Shown piece after piece: positions 39,786-64,000 of a stretch of 64,000 nucleotides of DNA. Position 1 is the stretch's first letter; every line of letters starts with the position of its first letter. The position numbers were made by a program, and so were the translations under genes. Below the pieces are notes generated by a model, which did not search any database, was not told the DNA's origin, and saw nothing but the letters and a program-made list of their open reading frames with translations. Origin of the DNA: Candidatus Omnitrophota bacterium (GTDB lineage Bacteria; Omnitrophota; Gorgyraeia; JACQQV01); assembly GCA_016206785.1 (NCBI GenBank), contig JACQQV010000048.1, forward strand, positions 1,889-65,888. The letters are read 5' to 3'.

Positions 39786-39828
39786 ATTCACCCCGTTAGA
39801 GATTTCATCTCTAACGGGGTTCATTTGA
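39786..39828 (+). repeat. Palindromic repeat copy 2 (ACCCCGTTAGAG-loop-CTCTAACGGGGTT), intergenic after pilQ
   Basis: The sequence matches the 31203-31245 element. Confidence 0.6.
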
Positions 39829-41436: not shown

Positions 41437-41515
41437 GGGACTAAGTCCCTTTTCCCCTTAGACCTAGTACAAAGGAACAAGTCTAACCGTCATTGGGACT
41501 TAGTCCCGAAGTTGC
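41437..41515 (+). repeat. Composite palindromic repeat, locus 1: GGGACTAAGTCCC-TTTTCCCCTTAGAC ... GTCTAAC ... GGGACTTAGTCCC
   Basis: Two 13-bp perfect palindromes flank an inner inverted repeat. It is related to the element at 55250-55345. Confidence 0.6.
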
Positions 41516-48385: not shown

Positions 48386-48452
48386 AAAAAGTTCGTTGAC
48401 AAGAAAAATGAATCTTGGTATCTTACAGGGAGACATCAAAGGAGGTGTTGTA

Positions 48453-48599
48453 ATGGATGCATACTGTGTGAAGTGCAAGGCAAAGAAGCAGATGAAGGAT
48501 GCGCAGAAGGTCACCATGAAGAATGGGCGCGCAGCCATGAAGGGAAAATGTCCTGACTGCGGGACAGGTCTTTATCGTATTATGAGTGGCGGTAAATAG
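48453..48599 (+). CDS. Small zinc-ribbon protein (CxxC...CxxC, 48 aa)
   Basis: The translation is 'MDAYCVKCKAKKQ...KCPDCGTGLYRIM'. The RBS is AAGGAGGTG. Confidence 0.5.
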   Translation: MDAYCVKCKAKKQMKDAQKVTMKNGRAAMKGKCPDCGTGLYRIMSGGK

Positions 48600-48608
48600 G
48601 AAAAGCGG

Positions 48609-48995
48609 ATTCCGGCCATTCGTTCGGACCAAAAAGCACTCCTTATCGCAAAGGCAAGTCTCGCCAAGAAGGCGCACGAAGTGGTGATTTTGGACATGAA
48701 GCCGGTGTCCAATGTCACCGATTTTTTTGTCATCGCAAGCGGTTGGTCAGGCCGCCAAGTGCAAGCGATCGCAGATGGGATTCAGGAGGAGTTGGCCAAG
48801 AAAAAGATCGACCCCTGGCATCGGGAAGGGTACCGAGAAGCGAGCTGGATTGTTTTGGATTACGGTGATGTGATCGCCCATATTTTTTTCCAAGAAAAGA
48901 GGGAATTCTACCAGTTGGAGCGTCTCTGGGCAGAGGCACCCCGAAGCATGCTGACAGAGGAGGCGGGGCGTGTTCACTACCCCAAGAGTCACTGA
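48609..48995 (+). CDS. rsfS: Ribosomal silencing factor RsfS (Iojap family); N-terminus lacks a canonical start codon (ATT at 48609 or 48618 proposed; first canonical start is GTG at 48681)
   Basis: The sequence 'SDQKALLIAKASLAKKAHEVVILDMKPVSNVTDFFVIASGWSGRQVQAIADGI' aligns with the RsfS N-terminal helix and core. That helix lies upstream of the first GTG. Confidence 0.75.
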   Translation: MPAIRSDQKALLIAKASLAKKAHEVVILDMKPVSNVTDFFVIASGWSGRQVQAIADGIQEELAKKKIDPWHREGYREASWIVLDYGDVIAHIFFQEKREFYQLERLWAEAPRSMLTEEAGRVHYPKSH

Positions 48996-49009
48996 AAAAG
49001 CGGAATGCC

Positions 49010-50683
49010 ATGTCCCCCTCGTCCCCCGAACTCAAAGAAACACTCAAAGCACTCCTTAAGCGGAGCGTCGGTTCCACATTCCCCTCCTCGACCGCTTCCA
49101 CCATCCGTCTGGAAATCCCCAAAAGTCGCGAGCATGGCGATTTGACCACCACGATCGCGATGCGAATCGCCTCGATTGAAAAAAGGGAAGCGAGCGAGGT
49201 GGCCCGTCGGATCGTCTCTTCGTTGCGAATGCTTCTTAAAGAAAATAACCTTGAAAGTACAATTCCTAAAATTGAAGTGCGACCGCCCGGCTTCATCAAT
49301 TTTTTTCTGAGTGAGACCCAACACCGGAATATCTTGGTCGAGATTATCAAAAGCCCCGACTACGGGGCCTCCTCTGTTGGAAGGGGGACGAAAGTTCAGA
49401 TTGAATTTGTGAGTGCCAATCCCACAGGTCCTTTGAGTGTTGCCCATGGCCGACAGGCGGCTGTCGGAGATACCCTCGCACGCATCCTTCAGTTCTGTGG
49501 CTATGAAGTCTCTCGGGAATATTATGTCAATGACGTCGGAAATCAGATCGTTCTATTGGGAAGGTCGCTTTATCTCCGTTACAGGGAGCTCTTCGGGGAA
49601 AGGATTGAAATTCCGGAGGGGGGATATCGCGGAAAGTACCTCGTTTCTCTCGCGAAAGAGATTCAGGAAAAAGAAGGAGACCGGTATCTCAAAGAGACAG
49701 ACACAACCCTTTCTTTTTTTGAGCGATACGCCACCGAGAAGATCCTTGCAGCGATCCAACACGATCTTGAAGCATTCGGAGTCCGTTTCGATCACTTTAC
49801 GGTTGAATCAGAACTCCGCGCCGAAGGGAAGGTGGAGGAGACGCTGGATCTCTTAAGGCAGAAAGGGCTTCTCTTTGAATCAGAAGGGGCCACGTGGTTT
49901 CGCTCGACTGCTTTGGGCGATGACAAGGATCGCGTGGTGATTAAGTCGGACGGTTCCCTCACCTATCTGGCACCGGACATCGCCTACCACCGTGAAAAGT
50001 TCAAGGATGGTTTTCAACGACTGATCAACCTCTGGGGACCGGACCATCATGGGTATATCGGTCGCCTCCGCGCCGCCGTGTCGGCCCTCGGTCATGGCCA
50101 AGAGACCCTCTCCATCCTTATTCTGCAACTCGCCACCCTCTACCGAGATGGAGTGGTTGTTCCGATGTCGACGCGGATGGGAGAGTTTATCACCCTTCGG
50201 GAGGTGATGGAAGAAGTGGGCCTTGACGCGGCCCGTTTCTTTTTCCTCATGAAGAAACTTTCTTCCCACCTCGATTTTGACCTTGCGCTGGCAAAGAAAC
50301 AGTCGCTTGAAAATCCTGTGTACACCATTCAATACGCCCATGCCCGCATCTCCAATATTATCGCCTTTGGGAAGATTGGCGAGGTCCGGCCGGAAGAGGT
50401 AGCCTATGATCTTCTTAAGCATCCGGAGGAATTAGAGCTTTTAAAACAGCTGAGAGTTTTTCCAGAGACGATCTCCTCCTGCGCAAGATCGTTGGAGCCG
50501 GCCACCCTTGTCTTTTATCTTCAAAAGCTCGCAGGCTCCTTCCACAGTTTTTACCAAAAACACCGCGTCATCACGGAGGATCTCCCTTTAAGCCGTGCCC
50601 GAACGCTTTTGGTCCTATGCATACAACAGGTATTGGCTCGGGGCCTCTCTCTTCTGGGAGTCTCGGCGCCCGACAAGATGTAA
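49010..50683 (+). CDS. argS: Arginine--tRNA ligase
   Basis: The HIGH-type motif region has 'SANPTGPLSVAHGR'. The C-terminal anticodon-binding DALR domain is present. Confidence 0.9.
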   Translation: MSPSSPELKETLKALLKRSVGSTFPSSTASTIRLEIPKSREHGDLTTTIAMRIASIEKREASEVARRIVSSLRMLLKENNLESTIPKIEVRPPGFINFFLSETQHRNILVEIIKSPDYGASSVGRGTKVQIEFVSANPTGPLSVAHGRQAAVGDTLARILQFCGYEVSREYYVNDVGNQIVLLGRSLYLRYRELFGERIEIPEGGYRGKYLVSLAKEIQEKEGDRYLKETDTTLSFFERYATEKILAAIQHDLEAFGVRFDHFTVESELRAEGKVEETLDLLRQKGLLFESEGATWFRSTALGDDKDRVVIKSDGSLTYLAPDIAYHREKFKDGFQRLINLWGPDHHGYIGRLRAAVSALGHGQETLSILILQLATLYRDGVVVPMSTRMGEFITLREVMEEVGLDAARFFFLMKKLSSHLDFDLALAKKQSLENPVYTIQYAHARISNIIAFGKIGEVRPEEVAYDLLKHPEELELLKQLRVFPETISSCARSLEPATLVFYLQKLAGSFHSFYQKHRVITEDLPLSRARTLLVLCIQQVLARGLSLLGVSAPDKM

Positions 50684-52587
50684 AACGGCCCTTTGAGGCT
50701 GTGACCCTTTACCGGGGGGAACGTTATTCCCGGGAGTCCCTTCTTAAGACACTCACCCGTTTTGGATATGAGCGATGTGAGCGTCTGGGAGAGGTAGGGG
50801 ATTTTTCTATTCGTGGGGAGTCGATAGAGATTTACCCGTTCTCCTTTGAGGATCCTCTCCAGATCGTCTTTGAAGGGGATCGGATCGAATCGATTCGCGG
50901 CTTCCGCATTCTGGATCATGAGGCGCTCGAAGAACATCCTTTTCTGATCCTTCTCCCTGTGAAGAATTATCCACGCCCTTCATTTCCCCCTACCCCTTAT
51001 CGACAAGAGATTCCCCTTCAGGAAGTCGTTGATCTCGAAGAGGGGGATTATGCCGTACACCTCGAATATGGCATTGGGCGTTACCGGGGTCTTGAAAAGC
51101 TCAACACGGAAAAGGGGGCTCAAGACCATCTGGTCTTGGAGTATGCGGAGGGGGACAGACTCTATGTGCCTTGTGAGAACCTTCCTTTGGTCCAGCGCTA
51201 TATCGGCCTCGGGGGCCGCTCTCCAAAACTCCACCGACTCGGCTCCAAGGCCTGGCAAAAGACCAAGGAGAACTCTGAAAAAGGGATCACCCGCTATGCC
51301 CGCGAGCTTTTGGAACTTCAGGCCAAGCGGGCCACGCGGGAAGGGTATGCCTTTTCCAAAGACACCGACTGGCAGGAGGAGTTTGAACGTTCCTTTCCTT
51401 TTCGCGAAACAAAAGATCAGACCCGTTCAACGATTGAAGTGAAAGAGGACATGGAACGCCCCAAGCCGATGGACCGTCTTCTCTGCGGGGATGTAGGATA
51501 TGGGAAGACAGAGGTGGCCCTCCGTACCGCCTTTAAGGCGGTTTTGGATGATAAACAGGTGGCGATGCTGGTTCCGACCACGATCCTCGCGGAACAGCAC
51601 TTTCGAACCTTTTCACAGCGGATGGCCCCTTATCCTATTCACATTGAAATGCTTTCCCGCTTTCGATCCCAAAAAGAGGTGGAAGGGGTTCTGAAAGGCA
51701 TCCATGAGGGGAGTGTGGATATTGTCATCGGGACCCACATGCTTTTTTCTCAAAAAATCCATTTCAGGGATCTAGGACTTGTGATCATCGACGAGGAACA
51801 GCGGTTCGGCGTCCGACACAAAGAGCGTCTCAAGCGGTTCCGCCTTGAAGTGGATGTGCTGACACTCACCGCGACCCCCATTCCCAGAACCCTCTATCTT
51901 TCCCTCATGGGGGCGAAGGAGATGTCAGTCATCAACACCCCGCCGGAGGACCGGCGTCCGGTAGAGACGGTTCTCACCGATTACGATGAGGCGCTTATTC
52001 AGCAGGCGAGCTTAAGGGAGCTTAAACGACGGGGGCAAATCTATTTTGTCACTCACCGTGTGAAAGGGATTGAAAGAATTCGGGACCGATTACAAGAACT
52101 TCTTCCGTCCGCACGGATGGGTCTGTGCCATGGGCAGATGCCGGAACATTCATTGGAGCGGGTGATGCAGGACTTCATCGATCATCGATTGGATCTTCTG
52201 GTCTCCACCAATATCATCGAATCGGGAATCGATATCCCGAACGTCAACACCCTTTTTGTGAACCGTGCCGATCTTTTTGGGATGGCAGACCTTTATCAAC
52301 TCAGGGGTCGGATCGGCCGGTTTAAGGAGACCGGCTACGCCTATTTTTTTGTCCCGAAAGGTTTTTTTCCCACCGAGGAGGGGAAGGCGCGGCTTTCGGC
52401 GATCCGGCGGTTTACCGCACTCGGTTCGGGATTTAAAATTGCCATGCGGGACTTGGAAATCCGGGGAGCCGGAAATGTCCTTGGGTTAGAACAACATGGC
52501 TTCATTCAGGCGATCGGTTTTGACCTTTACCTACGTCTTCTTCGGGAGACGATCACCCACTGTCAGGCGGGAGCATCCTCTTCATGA
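50617..52587 (+). CDS. mfd: Transcription-repair coupling factor Mfd, compact form (about 630-656 aa) lacking most of the N-terminal UvrB-homology module
   Basis: The RNAP-interacting domain has '[16 protein letters not shown]...[16 protein letters not shown]'. The helicase motif I is '[12 protein letters not shown]', with motifs II-VI following. The start is uncertain; a GTG at 50701 is an alternative. Confidence 0.8.
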
Positions 52588-53519
52588 AAAAGATGGGCAT
52601 TGCCTTTTTCGTTTTTTACTGTGGGATGCTCGGAGGTGTTCCTTTTCTCTTCGCCACAACCGTTGGGAAAATTGTTGCCATTGTGAATGACGAGGTCATT
52701 ACCCAGCAAGAAGTCGATGAAGCGGTTCTCACGCTTCCCCCCGGAGACTCTCTACAGGGGGAACTCCGCCGTCAAAAGGTCTTGAATCGCCTCATCGAGG
52801 ACAAACTGATCTTGCAGAAGGCGAAGCAGGGTGGGGTGCTGATCAGTCCGGGAGAGTTGGAAGAGGTCATCAAGAAAGTCAAAAATCGGTTTTCCTCTGA
52901 AGAGGCGTTTGAAAAGACCCTCCTGGATTCAAATCTCTCTTATAAAGAATTTGAAAAGCAGCATGAGAAACAGCTCCTCATCAAGAAAATGGTGACCGCG
53001 GAAGTAAGGGCGAAAAGCACCGTTTCCCCCCGGGAGATGGAAGAATACTACAAGGCCCACGGGGATGAGTTTCAGAGTCCGGAGGCATGGAGACTCTCCA
53101 ATATTTTGATCCGGAAGGGATCCTCGTTAAGGACGGACGAGGCGGCAAGGCAGTTGGCCAAGAACCTCCTTAAAAGAATTCGGAAAGGGGAAGATTTCGC
53201 CGCCTTGGTCAGAGGTTACTCCGAGGGTCCGCGCAGGGAAGAAGGGGGAGAACTCGGATTTGTGGAGCGAGGGAAACTCTTAAAGGAGATTGAAGCATCA
53301 CTCCTTCCTCTTCGGCCGGGGGAGGTCTCCTATGTGATCGAAACGCCGGTGGGGTATCATCTCTTTCGCATCGAAGAAAAGCGAAAGGGGAAAAAGCAGG
53401 ACTACAAAGAGGTAAAGGGGAAGATTCGTGATTTTCTTCTCCAAGAAAAGATTAAAAAGCGCTATGGGGAATGGATTTCGCAACTTAAAAAGGAAGCCTA
53501 CATTAAACAGGGCGAGTAG
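52584..53519 (+). CDS. SurA/PpiC-type peptidyl-prolyl isomerase (parvulin)
   Basis: A signal/transmembrane N-terminus is followed by a SurA_N-like region. The parvulin motif is 'FAALVRGYSEGP...GGELGF...GYHLFRIEE'. Confidence 0.75.
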   Translation: MKKMGIAFFVFYCGMLGGVPFLFATTVGKIVAIVNDEVITQQEVDEAVLTLPPGDSLQGELRRQKVLNRLIEDKLILQKAKQGGVLISPGELEEVIKKVKNRFSSEEAFEKTLLDSNLSYKEFEKQHEKQLLIKKMVTAEVRAKSTVSPREMEEYYKAHGDEFQSPEAWRLSNILIRKGSSLRTDEAARQLAKNLLKRIRKGEDFAALVRGYSEGPRREEGGELGFVERGKLLKEIEASLLPLRPGEVSYVIETPVGYHLFRIEEKRKGKKQDYKEVKGKIRDFLLQEKIKKRYGEWISQLKKEAYIKQGE

Positions 53520-54486
53520 TAGAACCGCGTTCATTACGGTGGGAGACCCGGGCGGGATAGGCGGAGAGATTGTTCTCAAAGCCCTTCAGGTCCCACGCCT
53601 CCGGAAACAGGGACGCTTCGTCGTCCTCGGGACAAAGACCGTATTTGACACGACGGAAGATCTCACGGGTCTCCGCTGGCCCAAGGAGGTCTTGTTGGTG
53701 AACCTTGGCAACGTGAAGGAGAAGCGTTTCTCCTTTGGAAAGGTTTCCGCTTTGAACGGCCGCGCCGCTTTTGAATATATTCAGGAAGCGGTTCGTCTTC
53801 TGAAAAATGAGAAAAAGGGGATTCTGGTAACGGCCCCCATCCACAAGGAATCTCTTCAAAAAGCGGGACTCCATTGGCCCGGCCATACAGAGATGCTTCA
53901 AGATTTAACAGGATCTAAAAAGGTCAACATGATGTTTGTGGGGAGACACTTTCGCATTTCATTCGTCACATGGCACCTTTCCATGAAAGAACTCTCCTCG
54001 GCACTTTCCTCAACAAAAGTTTTGGATGCCATCCTTTTCCTGAACGATGCGCTCCACCGCTATTTTTCAAAAAAAAGACCTCATCTTGCCGTCTGCGCCC
54101 TCAATCCCCATGCAGGCGAGGGAGGACTTTTTGGAGATGAAGAAAAAAGGGTCATCGCGCCAGCGCTTCTTAAGGCGAGAAAACAGGGAATCTGGGTGGA
54201 AGGACCGCTTCCTGCGGACAGTCTCTTTTATAACGCGTATCGCGGCGCTTATGATGGCGTTGTCGCGATGTATCATGACCAGGGACTCATCCCTTTCAAA
54301 ATGATTGAGCGGGAGTTTGGTGTGAATGTGACGCTCGGACTTCCTTTTATACGGACCTCTCCGGATCATGGGACCGCTTTTGACATCGCCGGGAAAAACA
54401 GGGCAGATCCTCGTTCAATGATCGAAGCGATTCTTTTGGGCCATGAAATGGCCCAAAACATAAGGAGGGTCAGGTCAAGGTGTTGA
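53464..54486 (+). CDS. pdxA: 4-hydroxythreonine-4-phosphate dehydrogenase PdxA
   Basis: The motifs 'AFITVGDPGGIGGEIVLKAL', 'HWPGHTE' and 'ALNPHAGEGG' were seen. The start is uncertain (53428 or 53464). Confidence 0.85.
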   Translation: MGNGFRNLKRKPTLNRASSRTAFITVGDPGGIGGEIVLKALQVPRLRKQGRFVVLGTKTVFDTTEDLTGLRWPKEVLLVNLGNVKEKRFSFGKVSALNGRAAFEYIQEAVRLLKNEKKGILVTAPIHKESLQKAGLHWPGHTEMLQDLTGSKKVNMMFVGRHFRISFVTWHLSMKELSSALSSTKVLDAILFLNDALHRYFSKKRPHLAVCALNPHAGEGGLFGDEEKRVIAPALLKARKQGIWVEGPLPADSLFYNAYRGAYDGVVAMYHDQGLIPFKMIEREFGVNVTLGLPFIRTSPDHGTAFDIAGKNRADPRSMIEAILLGHEMAQNIRRVRSRC

Positions 54487-54559
54487 GGCGGTTAAGGGCG
54501 CTAGGGAAGGTTTTGACAGACTCAAGAGGATATGGTAAATTTGAAGGTGCGAGGTCGAT

Positions 54560-54769
54560 ATGATCCTTGAGATTAAAACTCTTAAACGAAAATATCACGG
54601 GTATTGGCTAGCCATTAAGGTAACGAAACGGGGCTCTCACAAAGAACCGTTGGCCGGAAGCCTTGTCGCTAAGGCCAAAACGCATCACCAACTGCATCGT
54701 CTCCTCAAAGACCCAAATGTCTATGAAACGTATGCAGGAAAAATCCCTCAGACAGCGGTCCTTTATTGA
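54560..54769 (+). CDS. Small hypothetical protein, DUF5678-like ('KYHGYWLAIK' motif)
   Basis: The 69-aa ORF contains 'MILEIKTLKRKYHGYWLAIKV...'. The family assignment rests on memory of the motif only. Confidence 0.4.
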   Translation: MILEIKTLKRKYHGYWLAIKVTKRGSHKEPLAGSLVAKAKTHHQLHRLLKDPNVYETYAGKIPQTAVLY

Positions 54770-54779
54770 AAGTTCGCTA

Positions 54780-54950
54780 TTCCCTTACCATTCCCCGCCC
54801 ATTATCCCCGTACGCTTCAAAGGCCCAAGAGGAACTAAAGAGGTTGATGCGCTGATCGATACCGGCGCCAGTTACGTGATTCTATCCTGGAAAGACGCTC
54901 TCCACTTGGGATACAATCCAAAACTCTCCTTGGCAACTGTCCAGTTTTAG
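54780..54950 (+). pseudogene. Truncated retropepsin-like (clan AA) aspartic protease fragment
   Basis: The sequence 'IPVRFKGPRGTKEVDALIDTGASYVILSWKDALHLG' has a D-T-G-A active-site motif. There is no start codon, the ORF ends about 40 aa after DTG, and it overlaps the upstream ORF. Confidence 0.45.
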
Positions 54951-55089
54951 GGGGGAAGGTCAAACGGACTGCCAACAGGCGCTGGAGGAAAAAGGTAAAA
55001 GTTGCTCTGAAAAAAGACAATGGGGTTTTACCGGAAGTTCGCGAGGTCTCCAATGTATGGAATTTTGCGAAAGATGGGAAGACCTATAG

Positions 55090-55257
55090 TGCAAAAAACT
55101 CTCCTTGGAGAAAAAAGGCAATTCGAAAATAAGAAGACCTTGCGGAATTCTTTGCGCGCGAAACCTCCAATTCGAAGAGGCCGCGTATCTCCGCGACCAG
55201 ATTAAAGAACTGGAACAGCATTATGGAAAAGCCACCGAGCGTCAGAGCAGGGACTAA
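55090..55257 (+). pseudogene. Short UVR-motif fragment (UvrB/UvrC C-terminal-like 'ARNLQFEEAAYLRDQIKELEQ'), probably a gene remnant
   Basis: The open frame has no ATG; a TTG lies at 55105. Confidence 0.3.
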
Positions 55258-55345
55258 GTCCCTTTTCGCCTTAGACTTTCCCCCGGGGAAGGCGGGACTT
55301 AGTCCCGCCTTTAAAAGGGAAGGGTCTGACCGTGACTGGGACTCG
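55250..55345 (+). repeat. Composite palindromic repeat, locus 2: GGGACTAAGTCCC-TTTTCGCCTTAGAC ... GGGACTTAGTCCC ... GGGACTCGGTCCC
   Basis: It shares a 28-bp core with the element at 41437-41515. Three GGGACTNNGTCCC palindromes are present. Confidence 0.6.
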
Positions 55346-55639
55346 GTCCCAAGATAAAAGATCCGGAACCGGACTGGTTTATAGATCAGGATATCCAAAA
55401 AGAAATAGAGGAATTCGCAAAAACTCACAAGGATTATGAAAAATATAGGCCTGAAATGTATAAAATATCGCTGGAGCCAGGAAATGAAAATTTAAGCTTG
55501 CAGGAACTCTATGATAAAGCTAAGGAAAGAGTTGGAACGGAGGGCCTGGAATGACATAAAAGGGATAGCCCCTTGACAAAGGCCCAAATCCATGGTATCC
55601 TTACTTCTGGATAGTAAAGAAATAGGGAGGTCAAGCGAT

Positions 55640-55900
55640 ATGGATCCTGTCATTGCGCCCATCTCAAGCAAAGGCCAAGTCACGATTCCCGCCCAAATCA
55701 GAAAGATCTTGCATCTTACTCGTACAGGAGATCTGTTGGGATTTATTCCTGTCAAGGAAGGCGTGCTGATGAAACATTTGGAAATCAGAGAAGAAGATTT
55801 TTCCGAAGAGGAGTGGGATAAGCTGGAAAAGTTGGCCAATCGAAAAGGGAAATCCTACAAAGACGCGAAGACTTTCTTAAGCGCCCTCAAGAAACTCTGA
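55640..55900 (+). CDS. AbrB/MazE/SpoVT-type antitoxin
   Basis: The sequence 'ISSKGQVTIPAQIRKILHLTRTGDLL' is a swapped-hairpin DNA-binding domain. The RBS is AGGGAGG. Confidence 0.65.
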   Translation: MDPVIAPISSKGQVTIPAQIRKILHLTRTGDLLGFIPVKEGVLMKHLEIREEDFSEEEWDKLEKLANRKGKSYKDAKTFLSALKKL

Positions 55901-56176
55901 ATGAAGTATCACACTAAGCCTTCCTTTGAGAGGACGATCAAGGGGCTTCACTCTGAGAGAAGGGCAAAAGTCAAAGAAGCGATTCAGGCGTTGGTCATAT
56001 TTTTTGAAACGGGACAGCGCACCGAGGGTTTGGGTCTCAAGAAACTGAAGCGAGAGTTTTGGGAAATAAGGACAGACCTGAGGGACAGGATTTTATTCAG
56101 GGCGAGGCATGATGTCATAGAGTTTGTCCTCTGCGGTAACCATGATGAAATAAGGCGGTACCTTAAAAATATCTGA
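55901..56176 (+). CDS. RelE/ParE-superfamily toxin
   Basis: The sequence 'FWEIRTDLRDRILFRARHDVIEFVLCGNHDE' gives the RelE-like fold pattern. It follows the antitoxin stop directly. Confidence 0.6.
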   Translation: MKYHTKPSFERTIKGLHSERRAKVKEAIQALVIFFETGQRTEGLGLKKLKREFWEIRTDLRDRILFRARHDVIEFVLCGNHDEIRRYLKNI

Positions 56177-56181
56177 GATTT

Positions 56182-57054
56182 ATGCCATCGAACTCGGCTT
56201 CAAGATGGTTTCAAAAGATGGATCTTGAAACGTTAAAAAAAGTCATGAAAGAACGTTCCTTTTGGCCCAAGAAACGGTTGGGCCAAAATTTTTTGGTGGA
56301 TGAATCTATTGCGCAACGGATGAGCCGCTCTTTCGGAGAGGGAAAGGGTCCCTTCATGGAAATCGGAGGTGGGTTCGGTTCACTCACCGAGGCATTGGTC
56401 ACTCCTCATAGGGGTCTCTATGTTCTGGAACCCGATCCCCGTCTTTATCAGTATCTTTTGGAGCGTTTTTGGGGAAAGGAGGGAATCGTCATTGAGAAAA
56501 AAGATTTTCTAAAGGTCAATTTTTTTGAATATTGCCGCGACCCGAATGAAAAATTCCGAATCATCGGGAATCTCCCTTATGCCATCACAAGCCCCATTCT
56601 CCTTCATCTTGTGGACCAAAGGGATTTTATTCAGGAAGCCCTTGTCACGGTTCAAAAGGAGGTGGCGCAGCGGCTCACCGCAAAACCGAAAACCAAGGCA
56701 TACGGCTCTCTCTCTTGTTTCATCCAATGCTTTACCTCCTGCGAAACACTCTTCCAGATTTCAAGAAACGCCTTTTATCCGAGACCCAAGGTCGACTCGA
56801 CGGTGGTTCTGCTTCGCTTTCTTGAGAGAGCGAGCGTATCACCCAAAAATCTGGAGTGGATGATTCGGGTCATCCGGACCGGCTTTGGAAAACGCCGAAA
56901 GATCCTCGCGAATGCCCTGACCGATTTGGGAAAGGAATACACCAAGGAACGGCTGTTCGCTGCCTTAAGCGCACTCGGCTTTTCAAAAAATGCCCGGGCG
57001 GAGGAACTGAATTTGGAGGAGTTTGCACACCTTTCAGATAAGCTCATTGGTTGA
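56182..57054 (+). CDS. rsmA: 16S rRNA (adenine1518/1519-N6)-dimethyltransferase RsmA/KsgA
   Basis: The motif 'RLGQNFLVDESI' was seen. The start is uncertain (56182, 56218 or 56245). Confidence 0.85.
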   Translation: MPSNSASRWFQKMDLETLKKVMKERSFWPKKRLGQNFLVDESIAQRMSRSFGEGKGPFMEIGGGFGSLTEALVTPHRGLYVLEPDPRLYQYLLERFWGKEGIVIEKKDFLKVNFFEYCRDPNEKFRIIGNLPYAITSPILLHLVDQRDFIQEALVTVQKEVAQRLTAKPKTKAYGSLSCFIQCFTSCETLFQISRNAFYPRPKVDSTVVLLRFLERASVSPKNLEWMIRVIRTGFGKRRKILANALTDLGKEYTKERLFAALSALGFSKNARAEELNLEEFAHLSDKLIG

Positions 57055-62623: not shown

Positions 62624-63280
62624 ATGTCTTCTCTTGAACTCACCTTGCGGTTACTCCTCGCCCTCCTTTTGGGCGGTGCGGTCGGCCTTGAACGGGAGAA
62701 GCATGGGCGGGCAGCAGGCCTCAGGACCCATATTCTTGTCTGTATGGGGTCGGCGCTGATGATGTGTCTTTCTCTTTTTCTGTACGAAAAGTATGAGTCG
62801 GATCCGTCTCGGATCGCCTCCCAAGTCATTAGCGGCATCGGCTTTCTGGGGGCGGGGACGATTCTTCGATTTCGGGCTTCTGTCAAGGGGCTTACCACGG
62901 CGGCAAGCCTTTGGGCTGTTTCGGGGATCGGTCTTGCAGCCGGAGCGGGATTTTACTTCGGCTCGCTCGTCACCACAGCGCTTGTTTTGGGATCTCTCTT
63001 TTGGGTGGCCAAGATGGCCGAGAAACTTTTAACGCACAGGGATTGGTATCGATCTCTCGAGATTGAGATGGAAGGGGCTTTCGAAGGACTCCAGAAGATT
63101 CGAGACATTTTAACCAACTACAGCACCGAGATCAAAGATTTTGATATCACCAAACTCGAGACAGGAAATGTCCGCATCGTTCTGGATCTGCGACTTCTTT
63201 CCCCACGGGAAGAGGATCCGGTCCTCAAGGAGATCGCTGGACTCAAGGGAGTGGAGAGGGTGGTCTGGAGAGAGGCATAG
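62624..63280 (+). CDS. mgtC: MgtC/SapB-family membrane protein with C-terminal ACT-like domain
   Basis: The sequence 'LLLALLLGGAVGLEREKHGRAAGLRTHILV' was seen. Confidence 0.8.
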   Translation: MSSLELTLRLLLALLLGGAVGLEREKHGRAAGLRTHILVCMGSALMMCLSLFLYEKYESDPSRIASQVISGIGFLGAGTILRFRASVKGLTTAASLWAVSGIGLAAGAGFYFGSLVTTALVLGSLFWVAKMAEKLLTHRDWYRSLEIEMEGAFEGLQKIRDILTNYSTEIKDFDITKLETGNVRIVLDLRLLSPREEDPVLKEIAGLKGVERVVWREA

Positions 63281-63290
63281 GAGGTGCAAG

Positions 63291-63839
63291 ATGGCGATCA
63301 TGCGAAGGGAAAAAGAAAAGGAGGTTGGGGAGAAGATCCTGGATGTCGATGCGAGCATGCAGGGAACTCTCTCTTTTCGGGATCCTGTAAACCTCAAGAT
63401 CAACGGGAAATTTGAAGGGACACTGGACACACGAGGATCGTTGACCATCGGTGAGAATGCAACGGTTCATGCGACCATTAAGGGAGAAAGTATCCTCATT
63501 GCAGGAAAGGTGACCGGGAATATCAACGCGCAGAAAATAATTCGGATCGTTCCGCCGGGAGAGGTGATCGGTGATATCCGCACCCCCCTTCTGGAGGTAA
63601 AAGAAGGGGCGATCCTGCAGGGAAATTGCAATATGGGGGGCGAGTCCAAATCGGGTCTTACCCCTTCCCGTCGTGAAGTCTTGACCGCAGAGGAACTCGC
63701 GCGTTATCTGGAGGTCGAAACCTCCTCGGTTTTGGAATGGGCGGAACGGGGAAAAATTCCCGCGATCCGCGAGGGGAACCTCTGGAAGTTTGACCGCACC
63801 AAAATCGACGAATGGGTTTCGAACGAGAAAATCAAGTAA
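63291..63839 (+). CDS. Bactofilin (DUF583 beta-helix) fused to a C-terminal excisionase/MerR-type HTH DNA-binding domain
   Basis: The bactofilin repeats are 'LTIGENATVHATIKGESILIAGKVTGNINAQKIIRI'. The HTH_17 domain is 'LTAEELARYLEVETSSVLEWAERGKIPAI'. The RBS is AGGAGGTG. Confidence 0.65.
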   Translation: MAIMRREKEKEVGEKILDVDASMQGTLSFRDPVNLKINGKFEGTLDTRGSLTIGENATVHATIKGESILIAGKVTGNINAQKIIRIVPPGEVIGDIRTPLLEVKEGAILQGNCNMGGESKSGLTPSRREVLTAEELARYLEVETSSVLEWAERGKIPAIREGNLWKFDRTKIDEWVSNEKIK

Positions 63840-63849
63840 ACCAATTAAA

Positions 63850-63945
63850 AACGTAAAACGAAAAAGGCAAAATTGAAATTTAAAATTCAAAAGTTTTAAA
63901 TTTTGAATTGTAGTTTTGAATTTTGCATTTTGAGTTTTTACTTCG
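63850..63945 (+). repeat. AT-rich palindromic element, copy 2
   Basis: It shares the 'AAAATTGAAATT', 'GTTTTAAATT', 'GTTTTGAATTTT' and 'TTTTGAATTGTA' blocks with 41905-41990. Confidence 0.55.
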
Positions 63946-64000
63946 ATGGCTGAAAAACTGCTCAACGTAGAAGAGGCGGCCTCGTTTTTAAGACTTTCTG
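63946..64000 (+). CDS. 5' end of an excisionase-family HTH DNA-binding protein gene (truncated by the window end)
   Basis: The translation is 'MAEKLLNVEEAASFLRLS'. Confidence 0.4.
   Translation, partial: MAEKLLNVEEAASFLRLS

Follow-up and report, generated by a model that had tools for sequence, protein, structure and literature searches.

Toxin-antitoxin islets and gene debris are well known in bacterial chromosomes, and addiction modules are known to show an asymmetry of constraint between the protective and the harmful gene. Integron cassettes usually lack promoters of their own. Retropepsin proteins of about 100 amino acids (aa) have been associated with type III CRISPR loci in Sulfolobales (PMC3973734). 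Here we analyse the DNA between pdxA and ksgA in a metagenome-assembled genome (MAG) of Candidatus Omnitrophota, within a 64,000-nt stretch of one contig (the window, to which all coordinates refer). A preliminary description had read this interval as the decayed remains of one integrated element held in place by a toxin-antitoxin pair. We show that its segments have separate evolutionary origins; at least four small selfish modules, some intact and some decayed, were probably acquired separately. The spacer is probably a small accretion hotspot at which independent small-gene modules landed successively and decayed to different degrees, and not one wrecked element.

Separate origins of the segments

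As the preliminary description stated, about 1.7 kb separate the two genes: pdxA ends at 54486 and the KsgA-domain open reading frame (ORF) starts at 56182. The DNA between them is foreign and partly decayed, a run of short or broken frames, and consists of five parts that we call A, B, P, C and D in order (Table 1). Blastn searches and junction alignments gave sharp homology boundaries for A, C and D. Module A, a small gene followed by a retropepsin pseudogene, is 96.4% identical in DNA to copies on L085, L086 and L104-106 and 97.3-97.7% identical to those on L107 and L108; a second type of the module, 73% identical, lies beside a histidine kinase gene (L087, L088). The L085-type copies have a metallo-beta-lactamase-fold gene on one side and a Phd/ParE pair on the other, with birA nearby. 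Fragment C shares 88.7% DNA identity with the 3' part of the P0007 gene in L089-L092, and its neighbours elsewhere are DUF4062/HATPase genes. Module D, a toxin-antitoxin pair, is 97.1% identical to copies that lie next to MscS-VanZ and ABC transporter genes (L093-95) or next to a 288-aa gene without assignment (L096-97). No two of units A, C and D occurred together on any fetched contig. The nearest ksgA/gatCAB relative, L098, has 77-81% DNA identity to the window; in sample 3300009777 the ksgA of L098 is 81% identical, versus 96-97% for the module copies on L106 (A) and L094 (D).

These patterns bear on the alternative that one element (a prophage remnant, integrative island or transposon) entered the junction, lost its mobility genes and most of its cargo, and survives through its toxin-antitoxin pair. 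In its favour, the parts form a single compact block with the same orientation throughout, several of them are truncated, the toxin-antitoxin pair is intact, and the block is bracketed by an imperfect direct repeat whose copies lie just within pdxA and ksgA. However, the closest relatives of A, C and D are found in three unrelated neighbourhoods and at unequal identities, and one relative carries A alone directly before ksgA. Profile searches detected no integrase or transposase domain or remnant in any frame of 54487-56181, and no recombinase domain was present in the annotated genes at 43-64 kb, among which five ORFs have no Pfam match (four at 48.4-50.4 kb and one at 63243-63965). The att-like direct repeats envisaged at 54487 and 56180 were searched for, and neither these nor a target-site duplication was found there. 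Searches of IMG/VR found no relative of either the protease or the toxin, and informative PHROG matches were limited to the RelE-like toxin and the antitoxin. We consider a single integrated element unlikely. Under successive accretion, self-contained units would have landed one after another and then decayed unequally.

Most components named in the preliminary description stand: the UVR motif at 55090-55257, the GGGACT palindrome cluster, the start-less C-terminal fragment at 55336-55554, the intact AbrB/RelE-like pair abutting ksgA, and the decay of two genes, one by frameshift and deletion and the other by truncation at its 5' end. The search for intact homologues of the fragments that it had proposed succeeded for the protease and for fragment C, while the UVR segment found only itself.

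Probable horizontal arrival of module A

Contigs L107 and L108 (JGI 3300009444; ENA ERZ27245685, two samples) carry intact 69-aa and protease genes, then a 33-nt spacer and then ksgA (MDLNTLKDIMQEYDFRPKKRLGQNFL...). The preliminary description had held that related genomes with intact genes in the same interval would indicate an ancestral gene set. Module A is indeed intact before ksgA in these relatives, and this shared position, together with the descent of the window's 3' tail from an L107-type rather than an L085-type variant, agrees with the idea that the block, or at least module A, was ancestral at the junction in this Omnitrophota lineage and was inherited vertically with uneven erosion. 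However, the L107/L108 module is about 97.5% identical to that of the window, whereas the ksgA 5' region next to it shows about 70% DNA and about 61% protein identity, so that these contigs do not document an ancestral set; the ksgA of L107 also differs from that of L098. Furthermore, the synonymous divergence of the 69-aa gene from L085 is only 0.11, module A occurs at 94-96% identity in an unrelated neighbourhood, and nothing lies between the overlapping pdxA and ksgA genes of the Omnitrophota genome L004. Vertical inheritance is thus quite unlikely. Because the module differs by about 2.5% while the neighbouring ksgA differs by about 30%, recent horizontal spread is indicated, and the presence of module A at the pre-ksgA site in two diverged lineages points to recent horizontal arrival and a repeated landing site.

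That DNA was inserted into a conserved arrangement, as had been proposed, is supported by the gene order in other genomes. Among the matches listed in a genome scan with PdxA, of which the best are at most 47% identical in protein, ksgA immediately follows pdxA in 20 of 80 distantly related pdxA loci. The gaps in these 20 loci range from about -70 to 420 nt, and the two genes lie within about 110 nt of each other in 12 of them. In L004 surA, pdxA and ksgA are contiguous, with a 28-nt overlap of pdxA and ksgA. In another Omnitrophota genome (L005) coaX-groES-groEL follows pdxA in place of ksgA, and therefore the pdxA-ksgA adjacency is common, not universal, in the phylum. A gap of 1.7 kb is exceptional. 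The order coaX-groES-groEL-IMPDH recurs in Omnitrophota-type contigs (L085, 3611-9277; L005, 2667-7002, there directly after pdxA). With respect to close relatives of the junction, a KsgA search of metagenomes yielded one relative at 84%, on a contig that begins within ksgA, and exact-protein look-up returned the same population only.

Flanking repeats

The imperfect direct repeat that flanks the block is 41-44 nt long, with 33 of 40 positions identical and 2 gaps (local alignment score 18 vs 9.4 ± 1.6 for random segment pairs, of which 0.1% score as high). Its copies lie 29-69 nt inside pdxA and 27-70 nt inside ksgA, as counted from 56218, and contain near-identical hairpins, TTTTGGGCCAT...ATGGCCCAAAA in pdxA and TTTTGGCCCAA...TTGGGCCAAAA in ksgA; hairpins as long as 11 bp number five in the 64 kb. 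Each copy encodes a segment of a conserved protein, and most of the ksgA copy is also conserved in L107. The similarity may reflect chance, a shared RNA or recombination function, or sequence exchange between the copies. A further candidate origin, duplication of an ancestral pdxA/ksgA overlap, was unsupported, as the ksgA copy is native (L107) and 'SMIEAI' is native to PdxA (relatives). A T-run follows the ksgA hairpin, which was scored as terminator-like.

Assembly and points that weigh against accretion

The window comes from a MAG, and all short-read Logan contigs break within 55256-55262, at a repeat that has a second copy at 41.4 kb. It might accordingly be asked whether unrelated contigs were joined at this palindrome, or whether the frameshift and deletion in module A are assembly errors. 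Logan contigs from other runs are nevertheless 100% identical to the window on both sides of the break, over 50784-55262 (pdxA-A-B; L101 and L102) and across P-C-D-ksgA-gatCA (L084, 55256-56278; L083, 55387-56689; L082, 55852-57083), with L081 at 99.6%. The join also restores the pdxA-ksgA synteny that is conserved in relatives, which a random chimera would not. An artefact is very improbable, and the frameshift, deletion and truncations are real because these independent assemblies match the window.

Several points weigh against the accretion of separate modules as we describe it. An empty pdxA-ksgA junction was not found in any close relative, and the order and number of insertions are inferred. 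No terminal repeats, target duplications or recombinase were found that would account for the movement of promoter-to-stop-codon units. L094, L098 and L106 may not come from a single organism. L107 and L108 are contigs of 0.9 kb; both break off 31 nt upstream of the 69-aa gene, at an identical base, and so do not show whether pdxA lies there. Segment B has no relatives and could belong to A, to C or elsewhere. The toxin of module D was assigned by four weak matches (E 0.001-0.02), and its single-sequence AlphaFold model is all-helical and unreliable (predicted local distance difference test, pLDDT, 61). Finally, 55256-55262, inside the first palindrome, is the only junction without an independent contig that spans it.

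Table 1. Coordinates of the segments, genes and sites in and around the pdxA-ksgA interval
Feature	Position	Strand	Basis
pdxA, left flank	53428-54486	+	Pfam PdxA 2.9e-100
Left copy of imperfect direct repeat, 11-bp perfect hairpin (54434-54458), pdxA 3' end	54418-54458	+	alignment, hairpin scan
Module A: promoter, 69-aa gene, dead retropepsin gene, 3' untranslated tail	54494-54963	+	blastn, alignment
Sigma-70-like promoter of module A, TTGACA-17-TAAATT, TG extension	54513-54541	+	consensus scan; conserved in L085
Intact 69-aa gene (MBI4437231), partner of retropepsin gene	54560-54769	+	comparison with L085
Retropepsin-like aspartic protease pseudogene	54766-54950	+	alignment with L085/L087; L107 comparison
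Segment B	54964-55249	+	no match in any fetched locus (blastn, tblastx)
UVR-motif mini-ORF, 50 aa, TTG start (MBI4437232)	55105-55257	+	Pfam UVR 1.7e-07
Element P: nested palindromic, REP-like, GGGACTAAGTCCC ... GGGACTTAGTCCC ... TGGGACTCGGTCCCA	55250-55356	.	folding, repeat search
Fragment C: 3' 55% of a 121-aa gene (P0007 family)	55357-55558	+	blastn; protein comparison
Module D, self-contained toxin-antitoxin unit	55560-56176	+	blastn; 97% nt identity elsewhere
Sigma-70-like promoter of module D, TTGACA-17-TATCCT, TG extension	55573-55601	+	conserved in L093, L096
AbrB/MazE-fold antitoxin, 86 aa (MBI4437233), GGGAGG ribosome-binding site 9 nt upstream	55640-55900	+	profile matches
RelE/ParE-superfamily-like toxin, 91 aa (MBI4437234)	55901-56176	+	four weak profile matches
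ksgA/rsmA, right flank	56182-57054	+	Pfam RrnaAD 3.3e-45
Right copy of imperfect direct repeat, 11-bp perfect hairpin (56260-56288), ksgA 5' end	56245-56288	+	alignment, hairpin scan

Module A: a small gene and a retropepsin pseudogene

Homology of module A begins 7 nt past the pdxA stop, about 19 nt ahead of its promoter-like site, and the promoter-like sites of both A and D lie inside conserved module DNA. The 69-aa ORF, which the preliminary description called DUF5678-like, is real and intact, and its protein is identical to that of L085 (five synonymous and no non-synonymous changes). The label fared less well: DUF5678 (PF18929) gave no Pfam match at E ≤ 1 in the window protein and matched 3 of 13 members of the 69-aa family with a best E of 0.012, below significance, such that the family and DUF5678 share at most a distant resemblance in sequence. 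The family is small, with 12 representatives at E ≤ 1e-3 among 1.84 billion proteins, and the window protein matched no PADLOC, Pfam, NCBIfam or PHROG model. A confident structure model (pLDDT 89) predicts a helix, two long strands, a helix and a strand (alpha-beta-beta-alpha-beta), for which a Foldseek search of the PDB found no fold neighbour (best E 2.6).

Judged from its sequence, the protease gene of the window is a pseudogene of the Asp_protease_2 (clan AA) family. It had been described as a start-less, truncated retropepsin fragment with a DTGAS motif, and the fragment, the motif and the truncation hold, with a match to positions 1-36 of the 90 in Asp_protease_2 only (E 1.2e-05). The native TTG start, in contrast, is present at 54766 and out of frame. 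This start overlaps the upstream TGA, a family-wide trait according to the alignment with L085 and L087. A 2-nt insertion (an extra CC at about 54795-54796, some ten codons in) puts the gene out of frame, and 241 nt have been deleted between two 9-nt direct repeats (CCAAAACTC), one in the protease gene and one in the 3' tail. Deletion between short direct repeats is a textbook event. The one copy of CCAAAACTC that is left, at 54918-54926, is the deletion junction, and comparison with L107 and L108 indicates an L107-type progenitor. Both the frameshift and the deletion are reproduced in L101 and L102. Intact homologues of 124 aa exist (P0002-P0005), of which P0002 covers all of positions 1-90 of Asp_protease_2 (E 4.5e-15). 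A second, diverged protease half at 54964-55130, where 'RKKVKVALKKD' resembles 'RQKVKALVKD' by eye, was rejected: a hidden Markov model built from P0002-P0005 and run with filters off against all six-frame fragments of the window retrieved the known N-terminal fragment only.

The arrangement of a small gene with a retropepsin gene directly behind it, the two abutting or overlapping by 1-4 nt, was found in six neighbourhoods with identities down to 38% (the window, the L085 type, the L087 type, L103 at 46%, L109 at 38%, and L107), often next to toxin-antitoxin genes (Phd/ParE, nucleotidyltransferase antitoxin). On this comparative evidence the pair is a real, conserved, uncharacterised two-gene unit. 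The 69-aa protein might be the protective partner and the protease the harmful one, which would explain a dead protease beside a 69-aa gene under purifying selection. From the gene order, neighbourhood and decay pattern we infer that the 69-aa protein neutralises the protease. A bolder and at present doubtful proposal is that module A represents an undescribed mobile addiction or defence unit, in which a new-fold protein of about 70 aa would restrain a homodimeric retropepsin-like protease, and which could insert again and again between pdxA and ksgA, possibly directed by the near-identical 11-bp hairpins on either side of that junction. The window would then display the expected end state, with the protease destroyed and its partner kept under selection. 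Literature searches on DUF5678, PDC-M08, or retropepsin combined with toxin-antitoxin found nothing relevant.

Segment B, the palindromic element and fragment C

In segment B the open frame with the UVR motif spans the 55090-55257 stretch noted above, and its last codons and stop are supplied by the first palindrome. The mini-ORF matched only itself among 5.8 billion proteins, and its NCBIfam matches were generic UVR-motif ones only (McsA, UvrB, UvrC). An exact 14-nt repeat (AAAACTCTCCTTGG) is present at 54920-54933, at the deletion junction in the protease tail, and at 55095-55108, where the UVR mini-ORF takes its TTG start from it. The island has no other 14-mer repeat, and only 3 of 104 equally sized windows have one at all.

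Element P contains two of the four copies of the GGGACT palindrome GGGACTWAGTCCC in the window (0.04 expected); the other two are at 41437 and 41495. Its 55250-55352 portion folds as one nested hairpin (ΔG -62.9 kcal/mol, z -5.2). A second, simpler copy of GGGACTAAGTCCC / GGGACTTAGTCCC at 41437-41507, directly past the RNase E/G stop and before rplU, forms a 14-bp stem (ΔG -34 kcal/mol, z -3.4). The right edge of the element is the truncation point of fragment C. Rfam gave only sub-threshold chance matches to the palindrome (snoRNA, miRNA), and the element was seen at two loci in 64 kb and at none in the fetched related contigs. The element behaves like a REP-type (repetitive extragenic palindromic) repeat and a rearrangement site, and it probably serves as a terminator or stabiliser of RNA ends in addition to being a site of rearrangement. 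Contig L081, a population variant (SRR12113385; its positions 1-130 aligned with window 55256-55370), carries 15 nt duplicated in tandem where the palindromic element ends on the right, at about 55341-55356, and L084, from another run, is identical to the window there. Another palindrome family, ACCCCGTTAGAG...CTCTAACGGGGT, occurs at 31208-31237 and 39790-39820 with perfect stems of 13 and 14 bp, the latter copy between two genes, and is probably another short interspersed repeat of this genome.

The protein of fragment C is 83% identical to the C-terminal 55% of a 121-aa protein; codons 1-54 of the P0007-type gene are missing from the window, and the 55336-55554 frame has no ATG, GTG or TTG before 55456. 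The gene has lost its 5' half next to the palindromic element. Three homologues (P0006, P0008 and P0009) are only 72-81 aa long and begin just ahead of the conserved 'KDPEPDWF...' core. Either P0007-type genes are often truncated or the C-terminal 65 aa or so are a functional unit.

Module D and the flanking genes

The toxin gene of module D begins directly after the antitoxin stop, with zero gap, and the two genes are co-oriented with the antitoxin upstream. The antitoxin profile scores are all consistent and just under curated thresholds (TIGR01439, 26.9 bits vs a cut-off of 28.3, E 2.9e-06; MazE_antitoxin, 19 vs 24.7 bits, E 1.4e-03; PrlF, E 3.6e-04), and NCBI names the protein an AbrB/MazE/SpoVT family protein. 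The toxin matched ParE-like_toxin (E 0.013), CARF_RelE (0.0015), HigB 6af3 (0.018) and, over its full length, the PHROG RelE-like toxin (0.0014), and BLASTP found no similarity between it and the ParE proteins of L085 and L087. Both proteins are full length relative to copies elsewhere. In all three contexts the homology starts a few bases before the promoter-like site and ends exactly at the toxin stop.

Compared with L093, the antitoxin has three synonymous and no non-synonymous changes, and the toxin two synonymous and eight non-synonymous ones; compared with L096, the toxin has five and six, respectively. Although the counts are small, this pattern of selection fits the asymmetry of addiction modules, in which the protective gene is constrained and the harmful gene drifts or dies. 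As a type II toxin-antitoxin system, module D would encode an antitoxin that neutralises an mRNA-cleaving toxin and represses its own promoter, and by making loss of the DNA costly it might keep the island in place. No terminator-like site was detected in a scan of the stretch from the toxin stop to ksgA; for this reason ksgA transcription probably now starts at the module D promoter rather than in the old surA-pdxA operon.

The true start of ksgA is more likely the ATG at 56218 (MDLETLK..., cf. MDLNTLK... in L107), which is favoured because this ATG is conserved in the comparison with L107. The pdxA start may lie a few codons downstream of the annotated one, as the Logan gene call on L101 has 340 aa. 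The proteins of the interval match MBI4437231-MBI4437234 (HY590_07465 to 07480) of a Candidatus Omnitrophota MAG exactly, on a contig of 134,963 bp. Dense housekeeping genes, nearly all on the + strand, surround the interval (RNase E/G, a compact mfd, surA, pdxA, ksgA, gatC and gatA), and the window also contains gatB, a tail-specific protease gene and tsaD.

Two further observations concern the region upstream. The mfd gene (50617-52587) encodes 656 aa with UvrB-interaction, RID and helicase domains in compact order and no match to the TRCF C-terminal domain at E < 0.01; a typical Mfd has about 1,150 aa. Between two CNNM/CBS transporter genes and mfd, 48423-50422 holds four ORFs of 84-206 aa on both strands without a Pfam match. 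The housekeeping genes around them share one strand, and these ORFs may mark a further variable islet.

Comparison with known systems

The interval resembles several described kinds of locus without coinciding with any one of them. Like integron cassette arrays and CALINs (clusters of attC sites lacking integron-integrases), it is a compact series of small genes on one strand, often toxin-antitoxin genes or genes of unknown function, and its units have sharply defined edges. Unlike these, it has no integrase, its units carry their own promoters, and no attC R''/R' core sites (RYYYAAC ... GTTRRRY) were seen at the unit junctions or the palindrome by eye, no dedicated attC model having been used. 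Element P shares with REP palindromes and bacterial interspersed mosaic elements (BIMEs) its GC-rich, short and strongly folding sequence, its occurrence in several copies after stop codons, its breaking of short-read assemblies and its coincidence with a rearrangement breakpoint. It differs from them in being limited to two loci in 64 kb, in having no RAYT-type transposase known here and in belonging to an undescribed family.

The intact relatives of the module A protease are like small stand-alone retropepsins (Asp_protease_2/gag-asp_proteas; TIGR02281 clan AA DTGA) in having one domain of about 125 aa. They are also like component B of the PADLOC phage-defence candidate PDC-M08, which P0002, P0004 and P0005 match over their full length (E 2e-06 to 3e-04), in that they belong to a two-gene unit among defence or toxin-antitoxin genes. 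The differences are that the 69-aa partner in module A matches no model and that the protease of the window is a pseudogene. A two-gene unit related to PDC-M08B is thereby brought to light, and its decay pattern suggests a toxin-antitoxin-like logic.

Module D is closest to type II toxin-antitoxin systems of the PrlF-YhaV and SpoVT/AbrB type, with two small abutting genes, antitoxin first, and what are predicted to be an AbrB-type N-terminus, a RelE-like toxin of about 90 aa and a promoter of its own. As in toxin-antitoxin islets, it occurs in several unrelated neighbourhoods amid toxin-antitoxin pairs and gene debris. It departs from curated toxin families in that its toxin falls below every curated cut-off and is known from sequence alone, and from typical toxin-antitoxin pairs in that it ends at the toxin stop and directly abuts ksgA, a gene of an essential process. 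The insertions sever ksgA from the surA-pdxA-ksgA operon and probably place an rRNA methyltransferase gene under a toxin-antitoxin promoter.

The case bears on how such regions are annotated in MAGs, since what looks like a short "junk" interval can consist of several promoter-to-stop-codon units, each acquired on its own, instead of a single decayed element. As a fresh example of well-known genomic clutter the region itself is ordinary, and only the small-protein/retropepsin pair and the hairpins on either side of the interval might open up something new.

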